From contig JBDRQW010000012.1 in assembly GCA_043826085.1 (NCBI GenBank), forward strand, positions 1 through 32,972: DNA of 32,972 nucleotides. Reading direction: 5' to 3'. Source of the DNA: Candidatus Beckwithbacteria bacterium. GTDB lineage: Bacteria > Patescibacteriota > Microgenomatia > UBA1400 > CG1-02-47-37. The position numbers and the translations under genes were made by a program. Every line of letters starts with the position of its first letter. Within the stretch, counting starts at the first letter, position 1. Positions 10,852 to 32,212 of this stretch are shown here, piece by piece. Below the pieces are notes generated by a model, which worked only from the letters and a program-made list of their open reading frames with translations, ran no database searches and was not told where the DNA came from.

Positions 10852-10882
10852 TACCTTCAGGGAGACTCCCTGAAGGTACTAC
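10848..10882. repeat. Family A REP-like palindrome, copy 1 (downstream flank of the transposase; overlaps the rpsG stop)
   Basis: Perfect 35-nt palindrome GTAGTACCTTCAGGGAG-A-CTCCCTGAAGGTACTAC. Confidence 0.95.
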
Positions 10883-11074
10883 AATTCAAATATCCAAAAC
10901 CACATTCTTAATTCTAATTATATCACTTTCATCAGTTTCTTCAACAAAATTCTTATAAGAATTTCTCGAGTTAATTTTAGAAAAATAGCTTAATATTTCA
11001 TCAGTATTTACCCATGACTGTTTAAATAAACCCAAGTAATTTGCATAACTAGAGTACCTATAATCCTCTAAAAA

Positions 11075-11099
11075 ACCTTCAGGGAGTCTCCCTGAAGGT
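11075..11099. repeat. Family A palindrome, copy 2 (in-frame inside the transposase; PSGRLPEG)
   Basis: ACCTTCAGGGAG-T-CTCCCTGAAGGT. Confidence 0.95.
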
Positions 11100-11378
11100 G
11101 CAAGATCAGTAGGATTTCTATGAATATATTTTGATAAATAAATATATTGCTCTTCAGAAGTAATTTCAACAGCCTTATACGTTCCTTGAAATAATGGTCC
11201 AACTCTTTTATATTTCCGATTAAAATACATAGAATACTTAGTTGCCAAAGAGCGCATAAAATAATTCATTGACATTTCCTCTTTTTGGAAAATGAATAGA
11301 TGAAAATGGTTGGGCATTAAACAATAAGCCATCAATTTTATTGTTTCGGCATGGTTCTTCAACTGTCGAGATGGAGCT

Positions 11379-11403
11379 ACCTTCAGGGAGTCTCCCTGTA
11401 GGT
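11379..11403. repeat. Family A palindrome, copy 3 (in-frame inside the transposase; LQGDSLKV)
   Basis: ACCTTCAGGGAG-T-CTCCCTGTAGGT (one mismatch). Confidence 0.93.
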
Positions 11404-11573
11404 CGAGTGTCTTTGGTAAGGATAAATATAACTTTAAATATCCTAAAAAAGTTTTGTAATCATCAACGGTCTTAAAAATATCACCCTTTGCCACTCCACG
11501 ATTATATATATGATAATATGTATTTTCTTTGTATTCCTTCAACGAATTCTTTGGAGGCATAAATTTAGTATAC

Positions 11574-11598
11574 ACCTTCAGGGAGTCTCCCTGAAGGT
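11574..11598. repeat. Family A palindrome, copy 4 (upstream flank of the transposase)
   Basis: ACCTTCAGGGAG-T-CTCCCTGAAGGT. Confidence 0.95.
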
Positions 11599-11609
11599 TC
11601 AATATTATT

Positions 11610-16136: not shown

Positions 16137-16173
16137 CACTCCCGGAGTGAAAGAAGTTCACACTCCGGGAGTG
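16137..16173. repeat. Family B inverted doublet (intergenic, tuf-rpsJ)
   Basis: CACTCCCGGAGTG-AAAGAAGTTCA-CACTCCGGGAGTG, identical to 32020-32056. Confidence 0.95.
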
Positions 16174-16197
16174 GTTAATAAAGAACCTTATCTTCTT

Positions 16198-16512: not shown

Positions 16513-17253
16513 ATGATTAACACATTTTTTGCTACCAAACTAAAAACTGCCCAAGCCTTTGATGATAAAGGCAATCGTTTGGTAGTCACCAAAATAAAGT
16601 CTACCCCTTTAACTGTTACTCAAATAAAATCTGTTGAAAAAGATGGTTATTGGTCAATTCAATGTGCTTTTGGGAGAAAATCAAAAAAATCTTTATCAAA
16701 ACCACTTTTAGGACATCTTAAAGCATCGACCAAAGGCCGATCGTCCTCTGGACGAAAACTGAAAACCGCCCCTAAATTTATCAGGGAAATTAGAATTTTA
16801 AAAGAACCAACTTTAAAAGTAGGCGATCAAATCAAAGCTTCAGATGTTTTAAAAGCCGGTGACAAAGTAAAAGTTGTCGGTATTTCAAAAGGTAGAGGTT
16901 TTGCCGGAGTTATGAAGCGTTGGGGTTTCAAGGGTGGTCCAAGAACTCACGGCCAGTCAGATAGACCAAGATCTATAGGTTCTATTGGTCAAGGAACAGA
17001 CCCCGGTCGTGTTTGGAAAGGTAAAAAAATGCCGGGTAGATTTGGCACAGACAGAATTACTGTCAAAAACCTTCGAGTTTTAGAAGTTAATGACCAAGAT
17101 AATCTCATTAGTATCAAGGGTACGGTTCCAAGTTTTAATACTGCCCTTCTTGAAATCACCAAAATCAAAGAAGCTCCTACTTCCACTCCCGGAGTGAAAC
17201 CTGCCTGCGCAGGCAGGGAAGTTCCCACTCCGGGAGTGTCCAAAACAAAATAA
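16513..17253 (+). CDS. rplC: 50S ribosomal protein L3 with an internal and a C-terminal repeat-derived segment
   Basis: SKGRGFAGVMKRWGF and PGRVWKGKKMPG. Confidence 0.98.
   Translation: MINTFFATKLKTAQAFDDKGNRLVVTKIKSTPLTVTQIKSVEKDGYWSIQCAFGRKSKKSLSKPLLGHLKASTKGRSSSGRKLKTAPKFIREIRILKEPTLKVGDQIKASDVLKAGDKVKVVGISKGRGFAGVMKRWGFKGGPRTHGQSDRPRSIGSIGQGTDPGRVWKGKKMPGRFGTDRITVKNLRVLEVNDQDNLISIKGTVPSFNTALLEITKIKEAPTSTPGVKPACAGREVPTPGVSKTK
16726..16755. repeat. Family F double-hairpin 30-nt in-frame insertion in rplC (STKGRSSSGR)
   Basis: TCGACC-AAA-GGCCGA followed by TCGTCC-TCT-GGACGA; single copy in the window. Confidence 0.7.
17184..17238. repeat. Family B doublet with nested 18-nt family G palindrome, in-frame in the rplC tail
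   Basis: CACTCCCGGAGTG-AAA-[CCTGCCTGCGCAGGCAGG]-GAAGTTCC-CACTCCGGGAGTG, identical to 25137-25191. Confidence 0.96.
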
Positions 17254-18318: not shown

Positions 18319-19143
18319 ATGGCAATTAGAACTTATAAACCAACCACCCCGGGCAGGCGTCATCGACGAGACATTATTTGTGATGAAATCACCGCCACCA
18401 AGCCGGAAAAAAGTCTTACTAAAGTAATTAACTACAAGGCCGGTAGAAACAGTACTGGTAAAATTTCTGTTAGGCATCAAGGTGGCCGTCACAAAAGACA
18501 ATATCGTATTATTGACTTTAAACGAGATAAAAGAGACATTCCGGCCAAGGTAGCTACTATTGAATATGATCCAAACAGAAGCGCTAATATTGCTTTACTT
18601 CACTATGTAGATGGCGCTAAAAGATATATTTTAGCGCCCAAGGGTTTAAAAATAAATCAACCTATCATGTCAGGCGAAAAAGCTTCGATTAAACCCGGTA
18701 ACGCTTGTCCTTTAAAAGTTATTCCGGTCGGTAGTTTAATCCATAATCTCGAGATCACTCCGGGCAAAGGTGGTCAGATGGTTAGGTCAGCCGGAACTGC
18801 CGCCACTCTTCAAGGTAAAGACAAAAAAGCTATTATCAAACTCCCTTCCGGAGAAGTCCGTTTAATTTCTTTAGCATGTTATGCTACAATCGGCGAGGTT
18901 GGAAACCAAGACGTTAAAAACATTAAGCTTGGCAAGGCTGGAAGAAAACGCCACATGGGAGTTAGACCCACTGTTCGTGGAGTAGCCCAACATCCGGCTT
19001 CTCACCCTCATGGTGGAGGTGAAGGTCGAAGCGGTATTGGAATGCCGTCTCCTTTAAGTCCTTGGGGTAAAAAGACTCTTGGTAAAAAGACCAGAAGAGC
19101 AAGAAAATACTCAACCAAATTTATTATTAAAAAAAGAAAGTAA
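18319..19143 (+). CDS. rplB: 50S ribosomal protein L2
   Basis: [18 protein letters not shown] and HPHGGGEG. Confidence 0.99.
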
Positions 19144-19148
19144 AAATC

Positions 19149-19186
19149 AAGGTTACGAACTCGAACTTCTTAAAGTTCGTAACCTT
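19149..19186. repeat. Family C hairpin repeat (intergenic, rplB-rpsS)
   Basis: AAGGTTACGAACT-CGAACTTCTTAA-AGTTCGTAACCTT. Confidence 0.95.
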
Positions 19187-19194
19187 AACAATTT

Positions 19195-19479
19195 ATGTCA
19201 AGATCAAGCAAAAAAGGACCATACGTAGACGAAAGATTGGTCAAAAAAATCGAAAAGATGAAGGCTGATGGCAAAAAAGAGGCCATCAAGACTTGGTCTA
19301 GAGCCAGTCAAATCTCTCCGGATTTTGTTGGGCATACTTTTCTTGTCCACAATGGCAATAAATTTTTAGAAGTTTTTGTAAACGAAGCCATGGTTGGCCA
19401 CCGTTTAGGAGAATTTTCTCCAACCCGTACCTTTAGGGGTCACGGAAAAATGGTCAAGAGAACCGTTACTAAGACTTAA
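19195..19479 (+). CDS. rpsS: 30S ribosomal protein S19
   Basis: [10 protein letters not shown] and [12 protein letters not shown]. Confidence 0.99.
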
Positions 19480-19481
19480 AT

Positions 19482-19940
19482 ATGATCAAAGCCGAAGCAA
19501 AATTTATCAGAACCAGCCCAAGAAAACTTAGGCTAGTGGCCGATCTGGTTAGAAACATGAGTTTAGCCGAAGCCATAAGTACCTTAACTCATCTTAGAAA
19601 AAGGTCGGTTACTCCACTTTTAAAAACTCTAAAGCAAGCCACCGCCAACGCTGTTAATAATCTAAATTTAAGCAAAGACTCTCTTCAAATTCAATCAATT
19701 GAAGTGAACGAGGGAGCCACTTACAAACGTTGGAATCCGGTTTCCCGCGGTCGGGCTCACTCAATTTTAAAAAGAACCAGTCATATAAAAGTACTTTTAA
19801 AGTCGAACAATTCCGAAAAAGGTGACACCTTGACAGGAGACGCGAGAGAATCTCGAGTCGGGACGGCGAAGCCGGAAGGTGTCACCTTATCGGAAAAGAC
19901 TTCCACTCCCACTCCGGGAGTGATAAAAGGGAAGAAATAA
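19482..19940 (+). CDS. rplV: 50S ribosomal protein L22 with a repeat-derived tail
   Basis: SPRKLRLVADL and KRTSHI. Confidence 0.98.
   Translation: MIKAEAKFIRTSPRKLRLVADLVRNMSLAEAISTLTHLRKRSVTPLLKTLKQATANAVNNLNLSKDSLQIQSIEVNEGATYKRWNPVSRGRAHSILKRTSHIKVLLKSNNSEKGDTLTGDARESRVGTAKPEGVTLSEKTSTPTPGVIKGKK
19819..19888. repeat. Family D 70-nt inverted doublet, in-frame in rplV
   Basis: AAGGTGACACCTT...AAGGTGTCACCTT with two internal hairpins; 69/70 identical to 32091-32160. Confidence 0.96.
19910..19922. repeat. Single family B unit in the rplV tail (TPGV)
   Basis: CACTCCGGGAGTG. Confidence 0.9.
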
Positions 19941-19941
19941 T

Positions 19942-20598
19942 ATGGGACAAAAAGTACATCCAAAATCATTTAGAATAGGCCCTCTTTACACTTGGTCCAG
20001 TAATTGGTTTGCCACGAAAAAAGACTATCAAAAGTTTTTACTGGAAGATATTCAATTAAGAAAGTTTTTGTTTAGTAAACTTGAACTTGCGGGTATTACC
20101 GAAGTAAAAATCGAGCGTTCCATCAATACTATAAAGTTTATTCTTCATGTCTCTAGACCGGGTGTGGTTATTGGTCGCGGTGGTTCAGGCATTGAAGAAC
20201 TAAAAAAGATTTTATTTAATAAACTAAAATTTAATAAACAAACAAACAAAGCTCCAAAATTCGAACTCGAGGTAGTTGAAGTCAAAAAGCCGGATTTATC
20301 AGCTAGGTTAATTGGTCTAAGAATTGCCGATCAAATGTTAAAACGTTACCCTCATAGAAGAGCTATTTCTCAGGCTTTAGAAAGAGCCATGACTGGCGGA
20401 GCTAAGGGTGTAAAAATTGTTTTAGCCGGTCGTATCAATGGAGCCGAAATTGGTAGAACTGAAAAGTATTCAAAAGGCAGTGTTCCTTTGAGTACTATAA
20501 GATCAGACATTGATTACTTTGAAAAACCGGCTTTAACTAAGTTTGGTTATGTTGGTATTAAAGTATGGGTATATAAAGGAGAATTAAATATAGTTTAA
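19942..20598 (+). CDS. rpsC: 30S ribosomal protein S3
   Basis: MGQKVHP, RPGVVIGRGG and GIKVWVYKGE. Confidence 0.99.
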   Translation: MGQKVHPKSFRIGPLYTWSSNWFATKKDYQKFLLEDIQLRKFLFSKLELAGITEVKIERSINTIKFILHVSRPGVVIGRGGSGIEELKKILFNKLKFNKQTNKAPKFELEVVEVKKPDLSARLIGLRIADQMLKRYPHRRAISQALERAMTGGAKGVKIVLAGRINGAEIGRTEKYSKGSVPLSTIRSDIDYFEKPALTKFGYVGIKVWVYKGELNIV

Positions 20599-20637
20599 GG
20601 TTCGGAACTAGAACTTCTTAAAGTTCACGAACCTTAA
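20595..20637. repeat. Family C variant overlapping the rpsC stop
   Basis: TTAAGGTTCGGAACT-AGAACTTCTTAA-AGTTCACGAACCTTAA. Confidence 0.9.
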
Positions 20638-20646
20638 TTTTACATT

Positions 20647-21054
20647 ATGTTACAACCAAAAAGAATGAAATACCGCAAGCATTTTCGAGGTTCTATGAAG
20701 GGCAATGCTAATGTTGGCTCAAAAGTCTCTTTTGGCGAGTATGGCTTAAAGGCACAAGGTAGAGGTTGGATGACCAATAGGCAAATTGAGGCCGCTAGAA
20801 AAACTATCAGCCATCATACTAAAAGAGCCGGAAAACTCTGGATTAGAGTTTTCCCGGATAAAACCTACACTAAAAAAGCCGCCGGTGTTCGCATGGGTGG
20901 TGGCAAAGGAGAAATCGAAGGCTATGTTTGTGTTATTAAACCCGGTCGTGTTATCTTTGAGTTGGCTGGAGTAGATGAAAGCATTGCTCGCGAATCATTT
21001 AGGTTAGCTACTCAAAAGTTACCTATGAAAACCAAATTTGTAACCAAAATCTGA
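20647..21054 (+). CDS. rplP: 50S ribosomal protein L16
   Basis: [11 protein letters not shown] and VRMGGGKG. Confidence 0.99.
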
Positions 21055-21055
21055 T

Positions 21056-21253
21056 ATGAATCAAAAAGATAAACAAGCTCTTCAAGCTAAAACTACCAAA
21101 GAATTAACAGCCGATCTTTTAAAGTTAAAAAAAGATTTGGTTGATCAAAAATTAAAATTAAAAACCGGTTCTTTAAAAGATACCTCGAGTCTTAAAAAAA
21201 CTCGTTATCAAATAAACATAAGGTTACGAACTTTAAGAAGTTCGAGTTCGTAA
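21056..21253 (+). CDS. rpmC: 50S ribosomal protein L29 (C-terminus encoded by a repeat)
   Basis: 65-aa basic helical protein between rplP and rpsQ. Confidence 0.9.
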   Translation: MNQKDKQALQAKTTKELTADLLKLKKDLVDQKLKLKTGSLKDTSSLKKTRYQINIRLRTLRSSSS

Positions 21254-21257
21254 CCTT
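21220..21257. repeat. Family C copy in reverse orientation encoding the last residues and stop of rpmC
   Basis: AAGGTTACGAACT-TTAAGAAGTTCG-AGTTCGTAACCTT, the exact reverse complement of 19149-19186. Confidence 0.95.
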
Positions 21258-21264
21258 CACCACT

Positions 21265-21495
21265 ATGAAAAAACAACTAACCGCCACTGTTATCAGTGCC
21301 AAAATGCAAAAAACAGTCAAAGTTCAAGTAATTCGAAAATGGGCTCACCCTGTCTACAAAAAAATCATCACCAAGAAAAAAAACTACTTAGTTCACAATG
21401 AAAAACTTGATTTAAAACCAGGTGATAAAGTTATTATTGAAGAAACTAAACCCATTAGCAAGAAAAAAACTTGGCAGATTGAGAGTAAGGTATGA
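21265..21495 (+). CDS. rpsQ: 30S ribosomal protein S17
   Basis: KMQKTV, HPVYKK and [11 protein letters not shown]. Confidence 0.97.
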
Positions 21496-21866
21496 TTCAA
21501 CTAAGATCAACCTTAAAAGTCGCTGATAATTCCGGAGGTAAAAAACTACGGGTTATCTTGGTCCATGGTGGTTCAAAAAAACGTTTTGGTCACATTGGAG
21601 ATATTGTTACTGCTTCTGTTATTCAAGCTCACCCTCACGCTCAAGTTAAATCAGGTGAAGTTGTCAAAGCAGTCATAGTTAGAACCAGAAAAGAAACTGC
21701 CAGAAAAGATGGTTCTTATGTTCGTTTTGATGACAATGCCGCTGTTATTTTAGAAAATGTTAAAAATAAAGAGCCAAAAGGCACCAGAATTTTTGGGCCG
21801 GTGGCTCGAGAAATTAAAGAGTTTGGCTACAACAAAATTGCCTCTCAGGCTCCAGAGGTTTTATGA
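21492..21866 (+). CDS. rplN: 50S ribosomal protein L14
   Basis: VADNSG and [11 protein letters not shown]. Confidence 0.99.
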
Positions 21867-24661: not shown

Positions 24662-25200
24662 CTTTAAATACACTTACAAAAACAAAAGATAAATCAAAAA
24701 AAAGAGTTGGTCGCGGTTATGGTTCAGGTAAAGGTGGTCACACTTCCGGTCGTGGTGCCAAAGGCCAAAAAGCCAGAAGTAAGGTGCCACTTTATTTTGA
24801 AGGTACCCCAATGAGAAAAAGTTTAATAAGGAGAATTCCTATGTTACGTGGAAAATTAAAAAACAAACCGGTTGGTATCAAACCCATAATTATAAATCTA
24901 AAACACTTGGTGACTTTTAAAAAAGATCAAACAGTATCTGTCGAAACTTTAATCAAAAATAAAGTATTGCCGGCAAATGCCAAGGGTTTACCAGTCAAAA
25001 TTTTGGGAGATGGTGACCTTAAGGTAGCTTTAACAGTTACTTTACCTACTTCAAAATCCGCCGCCAAAAAAATTAAAAAAGCTGGCGGTAAAATAATATC
25101 TCCCACTCCCGGAGTGAAGAAAAAACCAAAAACTCCCACTCCCGGAGTGAAACCTGCCTGCGCAGGCAGGGAAGTTCCCACTCCGGGAGTGATTAAATGA
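24658..25200 (+). CDS. rplO: 50S ribosomal protein L15 with a repeat-derived tail
   Basis: [11 protein letters not shown] and VKILGDG. Confidence 0.98.
25104..25191. repeat. Family B single unit (25104-25116) plus doublet with nested 18-nt palindrome (25137-25191) in the rplO tail
   Basis: Encodes TPGV...[18 protein letters not shown]. Confidence 0.96.
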
Positions 25201-29189: not shown

Positions 29190-29194
29190 CATAA

Positions 29195-29230
29195 AGGTTA
29201 CGAACTCGAACTTCTTAAAGTTCGTAACCT
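29195..29230. repeat. Family C hairpin repeat (intergenic, rpsM-rpsK)
   Basis: AGGTTACGAACT-CGAACTTCTTAA-AGTTCGTAACCT, identical to the core of 19149-19186. Confidence 0.95.
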
Positions 29231-29238
29231 GAACATTT

Positions 29239-31172: not shown

Positions 31173-31598
31173 ATGAAACATAGAATGAAAGGTAAAAAAC
31201 TTGGTAGAAATATCAAGCAAAGAAAAGCTTTGTTTAAAAGTTTGATTACTAACTTAATTTTTAAGCAACAGATCAAAACAACTGAGGCCAAAGCCAAAGC
31301 CATTAAGCCATTAATCGATAAATTAATGACCAAAGCTAAGCAGGGCTCTCTTTCCTATCGTCGTCAAGTTATTGGTTTTCTATCTCACCAAAAAGCCGCC
31401 AATCACCTCTTTGATGTTGTTGCTCCTCAAACTAAAAAAAGAACCTCTGGTTTTACTCGAGTAGTTCGATTAGGCCAAAGAAAGGGTGATAATACCATGA
31501 TGGCCAAAATCGAATTTGTTGACAAGAAGTCCGTTGGTTCCGAACTTTCAGCGACCCGCAACGAAGTGAAGGGTAGTTCGGAACCTTCTAAAAAATAA
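31173..31598 (+). CDS. rplQ: 50S ribosomal protein L17 with a repeat-derived tail
   Basis: IKTTEAKAK, GFTRV and RKGD. Confidence 0.98.
   Translation: MKHRMKGKKLGRNIKQRKALFKSLITNLIFKQQIKTTEAKAKAIKPLIDKLMTKAKQGSLSYRRQVIGFLSHQKAANHLFDVVAPQTKKRTSGFTRVVRLGQRKGDNTMMAKIEFVDKKSVGSELSATRNEVKGSSEPSKK
31536..31585. repeat. Family C-like arms enclosing a different cargo, in-frame in the rplQ tail
   Basis: GGTTCCGAACT-TTCAGCGACCCGCAACGAAGTGAAGGGT-AGTTCGGAACC. Confidence 0.85.
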
Positions 31599-31600
31599 CT

Positions 31601-32212
31601 ATGAACACCTACGCCACCAAACAATCAGATATAAAAAGAGCTTGGCATCTTATTGATGTTAAAGACAAAGTATTGGGTAGAATATCTACAGTTATTGCCC
31701 AAAAGTTAATTGGCAAAACAAAACCTTATTTTACGTCTCACCTTGACTGTGGCGACTACGTGGTAGTTATCAACAGTAATTTAGTCAAAGTCACCGGTAG
31801 AAAAAAAACCGATAAAATCTACTCCCACCATACCAATTACCCCAGTGGTTTAAGACAAATTCCTTTTGATCGTCAATTGAAAAAAGACTCCAGAAGAATC
31901 ATCGTCAGAGCCGTCTCCAACATGTTACCAAAAAATAAGTTAAGAGCTCCAAGGCTAAAAAGATTAAAAGTATTCAAAGCAGACGATCATATTTATCAAG
32001 ATAAACTTTCAAAGGCAGTCACTCCCGGAGTGAAAGAAGTTCACACTCCGGGAGTGATTAGTTCCAAGCCTTCTCTTAAAAAAGTGAAAAAAGGTGACAC
32101 CTTAACAGGAGACGCGAGAGAATCTCGAGTCGGGACGGCGAAGCCGGAAGGTGTCACCTTGAAGAAACCCAAAAAAGTATTAAAACAAACTAAAACCAAG
32201 AAAGAAAATTAA
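31601..32212 (+). CDS. rplM: 50S ribosomal protein L13 with a repeat-derived tail of about 65 aa
   Basis: WHLID, DCGDYVVVIN and MLPKNKL. Confidence 0.98.
   Translation: MNTYATKQSDIKRAWHLIDVKDKVLGRISTVIAQKLIGKTKPYFTSHLDCGDYVVVINSNLVKVTGRKKTDKIYSHHTNYPSGLRQIPFDRQLKKDSRRIIVRAVSNMLPKNKLRAPRLKRLKVFKADDHIYQDKLSKAVTPGVKEVHTPGVISSKPSLKKVKKGDTLTGDARESRVGTAKPEGVTLKKPKKVLKQTKTKKEN
32020..32056. repeat. Family B doublet in-frame in rplM (TPGVKEVHTPGV)
   Basis: Identical to 16137-16173. Confidence 0.96.
32091..32160. repeat. Family D doublet in-frame in rplM
   Basis: 69/70 identical to 19819-19888. Confidence 0.96.

Follow-up and report, generated by a model that had tools for sequence, protein, structure and literature searches.

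A repeated palindrome encodes the C-terminal end of ribosomal protein L29, with its stop codon, in a Candidatus Beckwithbacteria genome

How does a repeated palindrome come to encode the end of a ribosomal protein, and is the protein served by it, indifferent to it or ruined? The question is raised by rpmC, the gene of L29, in the tiny genome of a groundwater Candidatus Beckwithbacteria bacterium. A first-pass annotation, made from the letters alone, had proposed that an exact reverse-orientation copy of a repeat (family C) encodes RLRTLRSSSS and the stop codon of a 65-aa L29, that the repeat replaced the native terminus rather than extending it, and that its RLRTL mimics the RVKTL of the usual terminal motif (ARVKTLL in E. 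coli), a case of exaptation. We followed up these proposals in the 32,972-nt stretch that carries the gene (hereafter the window), which is contig C12 of assembly G000 (1.05 Mb, 129 contigs, 96.9% completeness, 36.5% G+C), in the rest of that genome and in its relatives, in particular the sister genome G001 and the congener G002.

The 3' end of rpmC

The features concerned, with positions in the window, are the following.

21056..21253, forward strand: rpmC (ribosomal protein uL29), a 65-aa ORF that ends TRYQINIRLRTLRSSSS before its stop; PF00831
21214..21219, forward strand: left junction, AAACAT; in a MAFFT alignment with the sister G001, 27 nt are absent between 21213 and 21214
21220..21257, forward strand: 38-nt REP/REPIN-like palindrome of family C, encoding RLRTLRSSSS and the rpmC stop
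21251..21253, forward strand: rpmC stop codon TAA, within the 3' arm of the hairpin
21258..21264, forward strand: right flank, CACCACT, whose first three bases, CAC, are common to the rpmC copy of G001 and to a variant contig from X2/X3
21265..21495, forward strand: rpsQ (S17), PF00366; its start codon lies 8 nt (7 intervening bases) past the hairpin foot
19149..19186, reverse strand: exact copy, between rplB and rpsS
29194..29231, reverse strand: copy with 1 mismatch, between rpsM and rpsK
20597..20635, reverse strand: diverged copy in the gap from rpsC to rplP, overlapping the rpsC stop TAA by two bases (the first two of the copy, the last two of the codon)

The gene stands in perfect synteny in the S10-spc operon, starting 1 nt after rplP (L16) and followed by rpsQ. 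Residues 1-53 of its product are native, and residues 54/56-65 as well as the stop are derived from the repeat. The palindrome reads AAGGTTACGAAC-TTTAAGAAGTTCGA-GTTCGTAACCTT, with a middle part of 14 nt, and contains codons 56-65 and the TAA. It is the exact reverse complement of 19149-19186, which bears out the first-pass annotation as to the nature of the repeat and the peptide that it encodes. The AAACAT to its left resembles the (A)ACAT flank of other family C copies. The true left end of the element is probably at 21214/21215, 5-6 nt before the palindrome, since a 43-nt blastn match (21215-21257) relates it to a copy in G002 and since copies elsewhere have (A)ACAT directly before AAGG; N54 and I55 of L29 may then be repeat-derived too.

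A search of the genome with PF00831 gave a single match, rpmC, which is therefore the sole L29 gene found. This match (28.2 bits, for a cut-off of 24.5) covered profile positions 3-47 of 57 and ended at residue 53, as compared with positions 3-56 (40.9 bits) in G002 and 3-57 (35.9 bits) in G001; the full-length uL29 domain, including the C-terminal end of helix 2, was thus not matched by Pfam in the G000 protein. The native part appears to be under constraint: dN/dS over codons 1-53 was 0.16-0.23 relative to G001 and G002, and the protein retains all 8 invariant columns of the family alignment.

Both junctions of the palindrome were found with 0 differences in public (Logan) contigs. The left one was bridged by X1 record 1 (20900-21248) and X2 record 10 (21184-21248), the right one by X1 record 8 (21229-21500) and X4 record 28 (21229-21423). 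X1 is possibly the source sample; X2 and X4 belong to other studies. The 38-nt repeat was not spanned in full by any one record, nor was rpmC through rpsQ, and no RNA run was among those listed as holding the stretch. One X2 contig ended exactly at 21213, the deletion junction, which may hint at a coexisting allele. An X2/X3 contig identical to rpsQ carried a different subtype arm (...GAAAGTTCCGAACCTTCAC...) before the ATG.

When the window was scanned with the 38-mer at up to 3 mismatches, three matches were obtained (itself, 19149-19186 and 29194-29231), and none of 100 shuffled sequences gave any. The rpmC palindrome is predicted to fold, as RNA, into a 14-bp stem in which 21220-21233 pairs with 21244-21257 (-18.7 kcal/mol, z = -6.2), a stability equalled in 0 of 200 shuffles. 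All 4 copies in the window were predicted to fold stably (-16.7 to -18.7 kcal/mol, z from -5.2 to -6.5).

The repeat family and the RAYT-like genes

The 38-mer was present in 13 copies in the whole genome at up to 3 mismatches (reversed control, 0). A search of 14 genomes of the family with the arm pattern GGTTMCGAAC-N10-18-GTTCGKAACC gave 31 sites in G000, 9 in G001, 12 in G002, 2 in each of two genomes from a different genus and none in the remaining 9. The core 12-mer GTTCGTAACCTT occurred 76 times in G000, for 0.14 expected, and its C/G variant 41 times. We considered whether the exchange of A..T for C..G in the arms reflected structural covariation and rejected this, as it was better explained by two subfamilies, each matching a different RAYT-like gene. 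Copies were present in both orientations, and the conservation of their sequence reached into the loop.

To place the copies relative to genes, we used ORFs of 60 aa or more, a crude filter applied without a gene caller. On this basis, 10 of the 13 strict copies overlapped the stop of an ORF or sat at most 7 nt past it, and 6 of the 13 overlapped an ORF end. Two of them (in rpmC and rnpA) covered the last 34 nt of the ORF and agreed in orientation and reading frame, so that both proteins end RLRTLRSSSS; a third ORF, on contig C26, ended with the peptide of the other orientation, RLRTRTS. In the wider family, 18 of 39 copies lay wholly within ORFs of at least 60 aa according to the same crude filter. 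In the rnpA-yidD-yidC-jag-rnhA cluster (locus L044, C20:2566-4659), a family C copy was found at four successive gene junctions; rnpA ends there in the repeat peptide, and the stop codons of three other genes (TAG/TAA) come from the edge of the element.

The junctions occupied in the ribosomal operon differed among G000, G001 and G002. In G002 (locus L031), the rpsC/rplP, rplX/rplE and rplE/rpsN junctions contained decayed or internally deleted remnants of family C (e.g., CCTAAGGTTACGAACTTAATT), indicating that copies are lost as well as gained. At the secY/adk junction of G001 (locus L032, reverse complement, 11269-11341), copies were nested (AAGGTTC..[full copy]..CCGAACCTT), one family C copy being inserted within another, diverged one. 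The differences in occupancy and the nested and decayed copies are indirect signs that family C may be mobile. A 58-nt repeat (86% identical), made of CACTCCCGGAGTG...CACTCCGGGAGTG, was observed at 16137-16194, between tuf and rpsJ, and at 32020-32077, within the tail of L13; family C-type copies take its place at the tuf/rpsJ junction of G001 and G002.

G000 has 18 proteins that match Y1_Tnp (PF01797) above the Pfam cut-off, besides one weak match. All 18 have the HUH motif and 15 the YIHxNP motif. Their pairwise identity (153 pairs) was 71% at most, with a median of 40%, which indicates that they are distinct paralogs rather than copies of one insertion sequence. The three of the 18 that were scored with the NCBIfam model REP_Tyr_transpos (NF047646) reached 46, 25.7 and 40.6 bits, below its cut-off of 80.

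Most of the 18 genes had a palindrome of their own beside the ORF, inside it or both. The C44 gene had CAAGGTTCGTAACCTTGAG upstream, inside and downstream of the ORF, and the C61 gene had ATGTTAAGGTTCCGAACCTTAACAT, the C/G variant, with AACAT flanks. In these short palindromes, the arm of family C recurs as its A/T variant (C44) and its C/G variant (C61), and the 12-nt core is shared; the arms of family C are inverted copies of the core seen in the short REPs beside the C44 gene. The 38-nt doublet flanked none of the RAYT-like genes of G000; the 12-nt core alone did, at two of the 18. Family C is probably a miniature hairpin element of the REP/REPIN kind, which occupies gene boundaries in this Patescibacteria genus and is associated with Y1 (HUH) transposase genes of the RAYT type, and the palindrome in rpmC would be one of its copies; we consider this probable as part of the explanation developed below. 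Mobilisation would presumably be by a Y1 HUH enzyme rather than by a DDE transposase.

The window itself contains a RAYT-like Y1 ORF at 10886-11602 on the reverse strand (238 aa by its longest start; PF01797, 43.5 bits), with a palindrome family of its own, ACCTTCAGGGAG(A/T)CTCCCTGAAGGT, at 10852-10876, 11074-11098, 11378-11402 and 11573-11597, i.e., just downstream of the ORF, inside it and near its start. A cognate palindrome within the coding sequence was observed in many of the 18 genes (C44, C61, C78, C95, C102, C39, C12, C66), at a similar site ahead of the HUH motif (nt ~190-230, aa ~63-75). It is translated in frame there, for example into KVRNLE (C44) or VKVPNLN (C61). We know of no earlier description of a cognate palindrome inside a RAYT-like coding sequence.

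Origin of the L29 end

L29 proteins from 15 relatives were compared, each 3' end being inspected. In G002, L29 also has 65 aa; it is element-free, ends TRYQIALIKTIIQSKAK, and its gene finishes 2 nt before the rpsQ ATG. In G001, it has 74 aa and consists of a complete native end to which the tail of the element is appended (TRYQIALIKTLMGEKS-RLRTLRSSSS). Relative to G001, the G000 gene is short of exactly 27 nt between ...TATCAAAT and the element in the MAFFT alignment. These three forms support the idea that the repeat replaced rather than extended the native end in G000. Three further close L29 proteins (63, 65 and 67 aa) had native ends. The L29 closest by N-terminal identity (P0002, 84%) ends natively, which counts against the history set out below. 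One protein of 64 aa (P0005, ending ...IAFIKLRLGTLI) may have another repeat-derived tail, which is a guess; scans for its gene gave G002 and a distant genome among genome contigs and, in metagenomes, one G002-type locus (L041) with a native end. Across the family, L29 lengths ranged from 48 to 74 aa, and some proteins ended just 6-8 residues after QI.

The simplest history is an insertion followed by the 27-nt loss. Before G000 and G001 separated, a family C copy would have inserted at the stop codon of rpmC, and translation would then have continued 33 nt into the element, to an in-frame TAA, yielding the 74-aa form still present in G001. On the way to G000, 27 nt at the left junction would have been lost in frame, with a few changes, and with them the codons for ALIKTLMGE(KS); residues 54/56-65 and the stop would since have come from the element, and the protein would have returned to 65 aa. 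The new tail would be basic, predicted helical and tolerated without being specially shaped for L29, and the hairpin would be kept near-invariant by the dynamics of the repeat family (transposase recognition, re-insertion or conversion). A single insertion is favoured by the flanks, which are 84% identical between G000 and G001 (75-78% between either and G002), and by the orientation, frame and right-flank CAC that both rpmC copies share; CAC follows 2 of the 117 listed occurrences of the core 12-mer, 41 of which are the C/G variant. That the tail is tolerated rather than designed is indicated by the presence of the same tail in rnpA, by its unremarkable similarity to the native motif of the genus (P = 0.09; see below) and by the 48-74 aa range of L29 ends. 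Judging from these comparisons, we regard insertion at the stop in the common ancestor, 27-nt loss in G000 and a tolerated replacement by selfish DNA as the probable explanation.

Two observations complicate this history. The six bases to the left of the element (AAACAT in G000, GAAATC in G001) differ at 4 of 6 positions, so that a single clean deletion is insufficient to explain everything. Furthermore, the two rpmC elements differ at 1 of 38 positions, while the dS of rpmC is 0.48 and about 13 differences would be expected under neutral descent. Neutral descent from one insertion is thereby excluded, and conversion, re-insertion or selection is needed.

The 27-nt loss may itself have been selected, RLRTL standing in for the end of helix 2 (R-[IV]-K-T-[VL]) and the repeat being functional in L29. 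We searched solved L29 chains with phmmer and found that ...ryqiNIRLRTL aligned with ...rrdi-ARVKTV and rqsi-ARIKTV. The BLOSUM62 score of IRLRTL against ARVKTV/ARIKTV was matched by 0.3% of 200,000 random 12-mers from long ORFs of G000 (offsets 0-2), i.e., P ~0.003 for a comparison chosen post hoc, which leaves room for selection on the tail. Helix modelling, which had been put forward as a check, agreed with a helical end: AlphaFold2, run with an 11-sequence alignment, predicted a helix over residues 44-64, with a mean pLDDT of ~90 for residues 51-60 and 69 for residues 61-65. The return of this sole L29 to 65 aa would also fit an adaptive replacement. On the other hand, the alignment requires a 1-residue insertion after the invariant I53, and the Pfam match, which ends at that residue, has dropped from 36-41 to 28 bits. 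The native motif of the genus (A-[LV]-I-[KN]-T-[IL]) contains no arginine, and the similarity of the tail to the native heptad was reached by 9.2% of random 12-mers (P ~0.09) and by 8.7% of 2127 peptides read from other hairpins. Moreover, some L29 proteins of the family stop no more than 6-8 residues beyond QI.

In G001, this peptide is an addition behind the native end. In rnpA, it has taken the place of an unrelated terminus, and the tail, with a partial duplication of the arm, reads LRLRRLRTLRSSSS as against ITLNEKNSSQNN in G002; the length of the RNase P protein is preserved there as well (117 aa in G000, 116 aa in G002). It follows that the element, when read in that frame, fixes the sequence of the tail. 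To judge from these sequences, the peptide is dictated by the element and not shaped for L29, and selection could at most have favoured the deletion. Neither the mimicry of RVKTL by RLRTL nor the exaptation proposed earlier was thus established, and exaptation by mimicry is on balance unlikely.

Slightly less likely still, though a rival to be reckoned with, is an independent insertion, in which the element entered rpmC at codon 54, apart from the G001 event, and the stranded native 3' end was then deleted. The G000 copy equals the family consensus, suggesting a recent event, and to its left stands AACAT, as in the longer flank seen elsewhere in the family, where G001 has GAAATC. Sites in the operon turn over quickly, and the X2/X3 contig carries another subtype at the rpmC/rpsQ junction. 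This history would, however, have to account for an orientation, a frame and a rare CAC right flank identical to those of G001, and it requires an insertion and a deletion ending at the same base.

An RNA-level function, in which the hairpin is kept for mRNA stabilisation, for ribosome pausing at the rpmC stop or for coupling to rpsQ, with the tail as a by-product, seems improbable to us. The stability of the hairpin, its near-invariance between species despite a dS of 0.48 and the location of copies just past stop codons are all in its favour. Against it, each of the three congeners has its own set of occupied junctions, G002 contains decaying copies, both orientations are found, and the loop is conserved too, as expected for transposase recognition and not for a generic hairpin. 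No T-run was found 3' of the rpmC hairpin, where the next bases are CACCACTATG and rpsQ starts 8 nt on, and Rfam gave no match at E up to 1 over window positions 18900-21700. A conserved regulatory role of the hairpin at this site is therefore unlikely, given the lack of a T-run and of an Rfam match, the variable occupancy and the half-copies of G002. An intrinsic terminator was ruled out, the sequence being without a T-run.

That rpmC is a damaged pseudogene or an assembly artefact is very improbable: the last 10 positions of the PF00831 profile are lost, repeats break k-mer contigs and L29 is dispensable in E. coli, but the ORF is intact and perfectly syntenic, it is the sole copy in a 96.9% complete genome and has a dN/dS of ~0.2, which speaks against a pseudogene with an intact copy elsewhere, and both junctions are present in runs of other studies, where the public contigs agree with the 3' end of the assembly.

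Other repeat-coded tails and known systems

Repeats also encode the ends of other ribosomal proteins in the window. A 73-nt repeat (99% identical) is in frame in the C-terminal extensions of L22 (rplV, 19816-19888) and L13 (rplM, 32088-32160), where it encodes ...GDARESRVGTAKPEGVTL; in G001, it was found in L15 instead. L22 has 152 aa, versus 121 in G001, and L13 has 203 aa, versus 141. The last ~25 residues of L3 (rplC, 17179-17238) and L15 (rplO, 25132-25191; also 25090-25151) are formed by a 60-nt repeat (98% identical) composed of the palindromes CACTCCCGGAGTG and CCTGCCTGCGCAGGCAGG; in G002, tails of the TPGV type were found on L17 and L13. At the 3' end of rplQ (31546-31587), the module TTTCAGCG.CC.GCAACGAAGTGAAGGGTA + GTTCGGAACCTT, which is present on at least 7 other contigs, lies in the C-terminal tail of L17. 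In all, six ribosomal proteins in the window (L3, L22, L29, L15, L17 and L13), and the RNase P protein elsewhere in the genome, have repeat-coded ends. It is conceivable, though we think it unlikely, that REP-like hairpins are, in this Patescibacteria lineage, a regular source of C-terminal modules for the translation machinery, L29 being the case that has gone furthest, with a basic helix functionally replacing the end of helix 2. If this were true, a population still segregating the older rpmC allele would make the takeover observable in nature.

The L29 genes form a natural series of three steps: no element, element appended, element replacing native codons. This series suggests that, in a minimal genome, the 3' end of a ribosomal protein gene that is universal and present once can be rewritten by selfish hairpin DNA and the gene survive. 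The case also suggests that systems of the REP/RAYT type, which have mostly been described in Proteobacteria, can be both abundant in an ultra-small CPR genome and, as here, unusually intrusive, being read as protein tails. These findings bear on the origin of lineage-specific extensions of ribosomal proteins, and on annotation, as repeat-coded tails and stops are easily taken for errors. A new molecular mechanism is not demonstrated by the L29 case. In the literature searched, we found no paper on REP/RAYT in Patescibacteria/CPR or on a repeat-derived L29 terminus.

In E. coli, REP hairpins reportedly lie close to stop codons, as Liang, Rudd and Deutscher are said to have described in 2015. 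The rpmC palindrome would resemble them as a stable hairpin at or next to a stop, which could, by analogy, slow terminating ribosomes; it would differ from them in that its stop lies inside the 3' arm and its arms would themselves be translated.

The arrangement in G000 resembles the REP/REPIN-RAYT systems described by Bertels and Rainey (PMC3337134) in its short hairpin palindromes, present in many copies and mostly at gene boundaries, in its HUH/Y transposase genes, which are distinct from one another, occur once each and mostly have a palindrome of their own beside or inside the ORF, and in the combination of variable occupancy between close relatives with a highly conserved sequence. It departs from them in several ways. 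Family C measures 38-43 nt, compared with ~89 bp for the Pseudomonas REPIN in that paper (PMC3337134), and G000 has 18 RAYT-like genes in 1 Mb, whereas RAYTs are stated elsewhere to be "typically one copy per genome" (10.1101/119735). The three proteins scored fall under the NCBIfam RAYT cut-off, many family C copies appear to lie inside ORFs and to be translated instead of being extragenic, and the cognate palindrome also lies within the transposase ORFs.

Bacterial MITEs, as reviewed in PMC10969869, would be like family C in being mobile without a transposase of their own, in favouring the 3' ends of genes and in sometimes becoming fused in frame; unlike in MITEs, terminal inverted repeats with a consistent target-site duplication are not demonstrated for family C. 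The Rickettsia palindromic elements (RPEs), according to the same review (PMC10969869), are likewise selfish palindromes read in frame in housekeeping proteins of a reduced genome, the gene surviving. They are, however, ~150 bp long (100-150), form internal added loops and belong to an alphaproteobacterium, whereas family C is 38-43 nt long and terminal, and it supplies the C-terminus and the stop of L29, replacing native residues. Family C thus works like an RPE, as a translated selfish palindrome, and is not a member of that group, from which it is set apart by its size and its terminal position.
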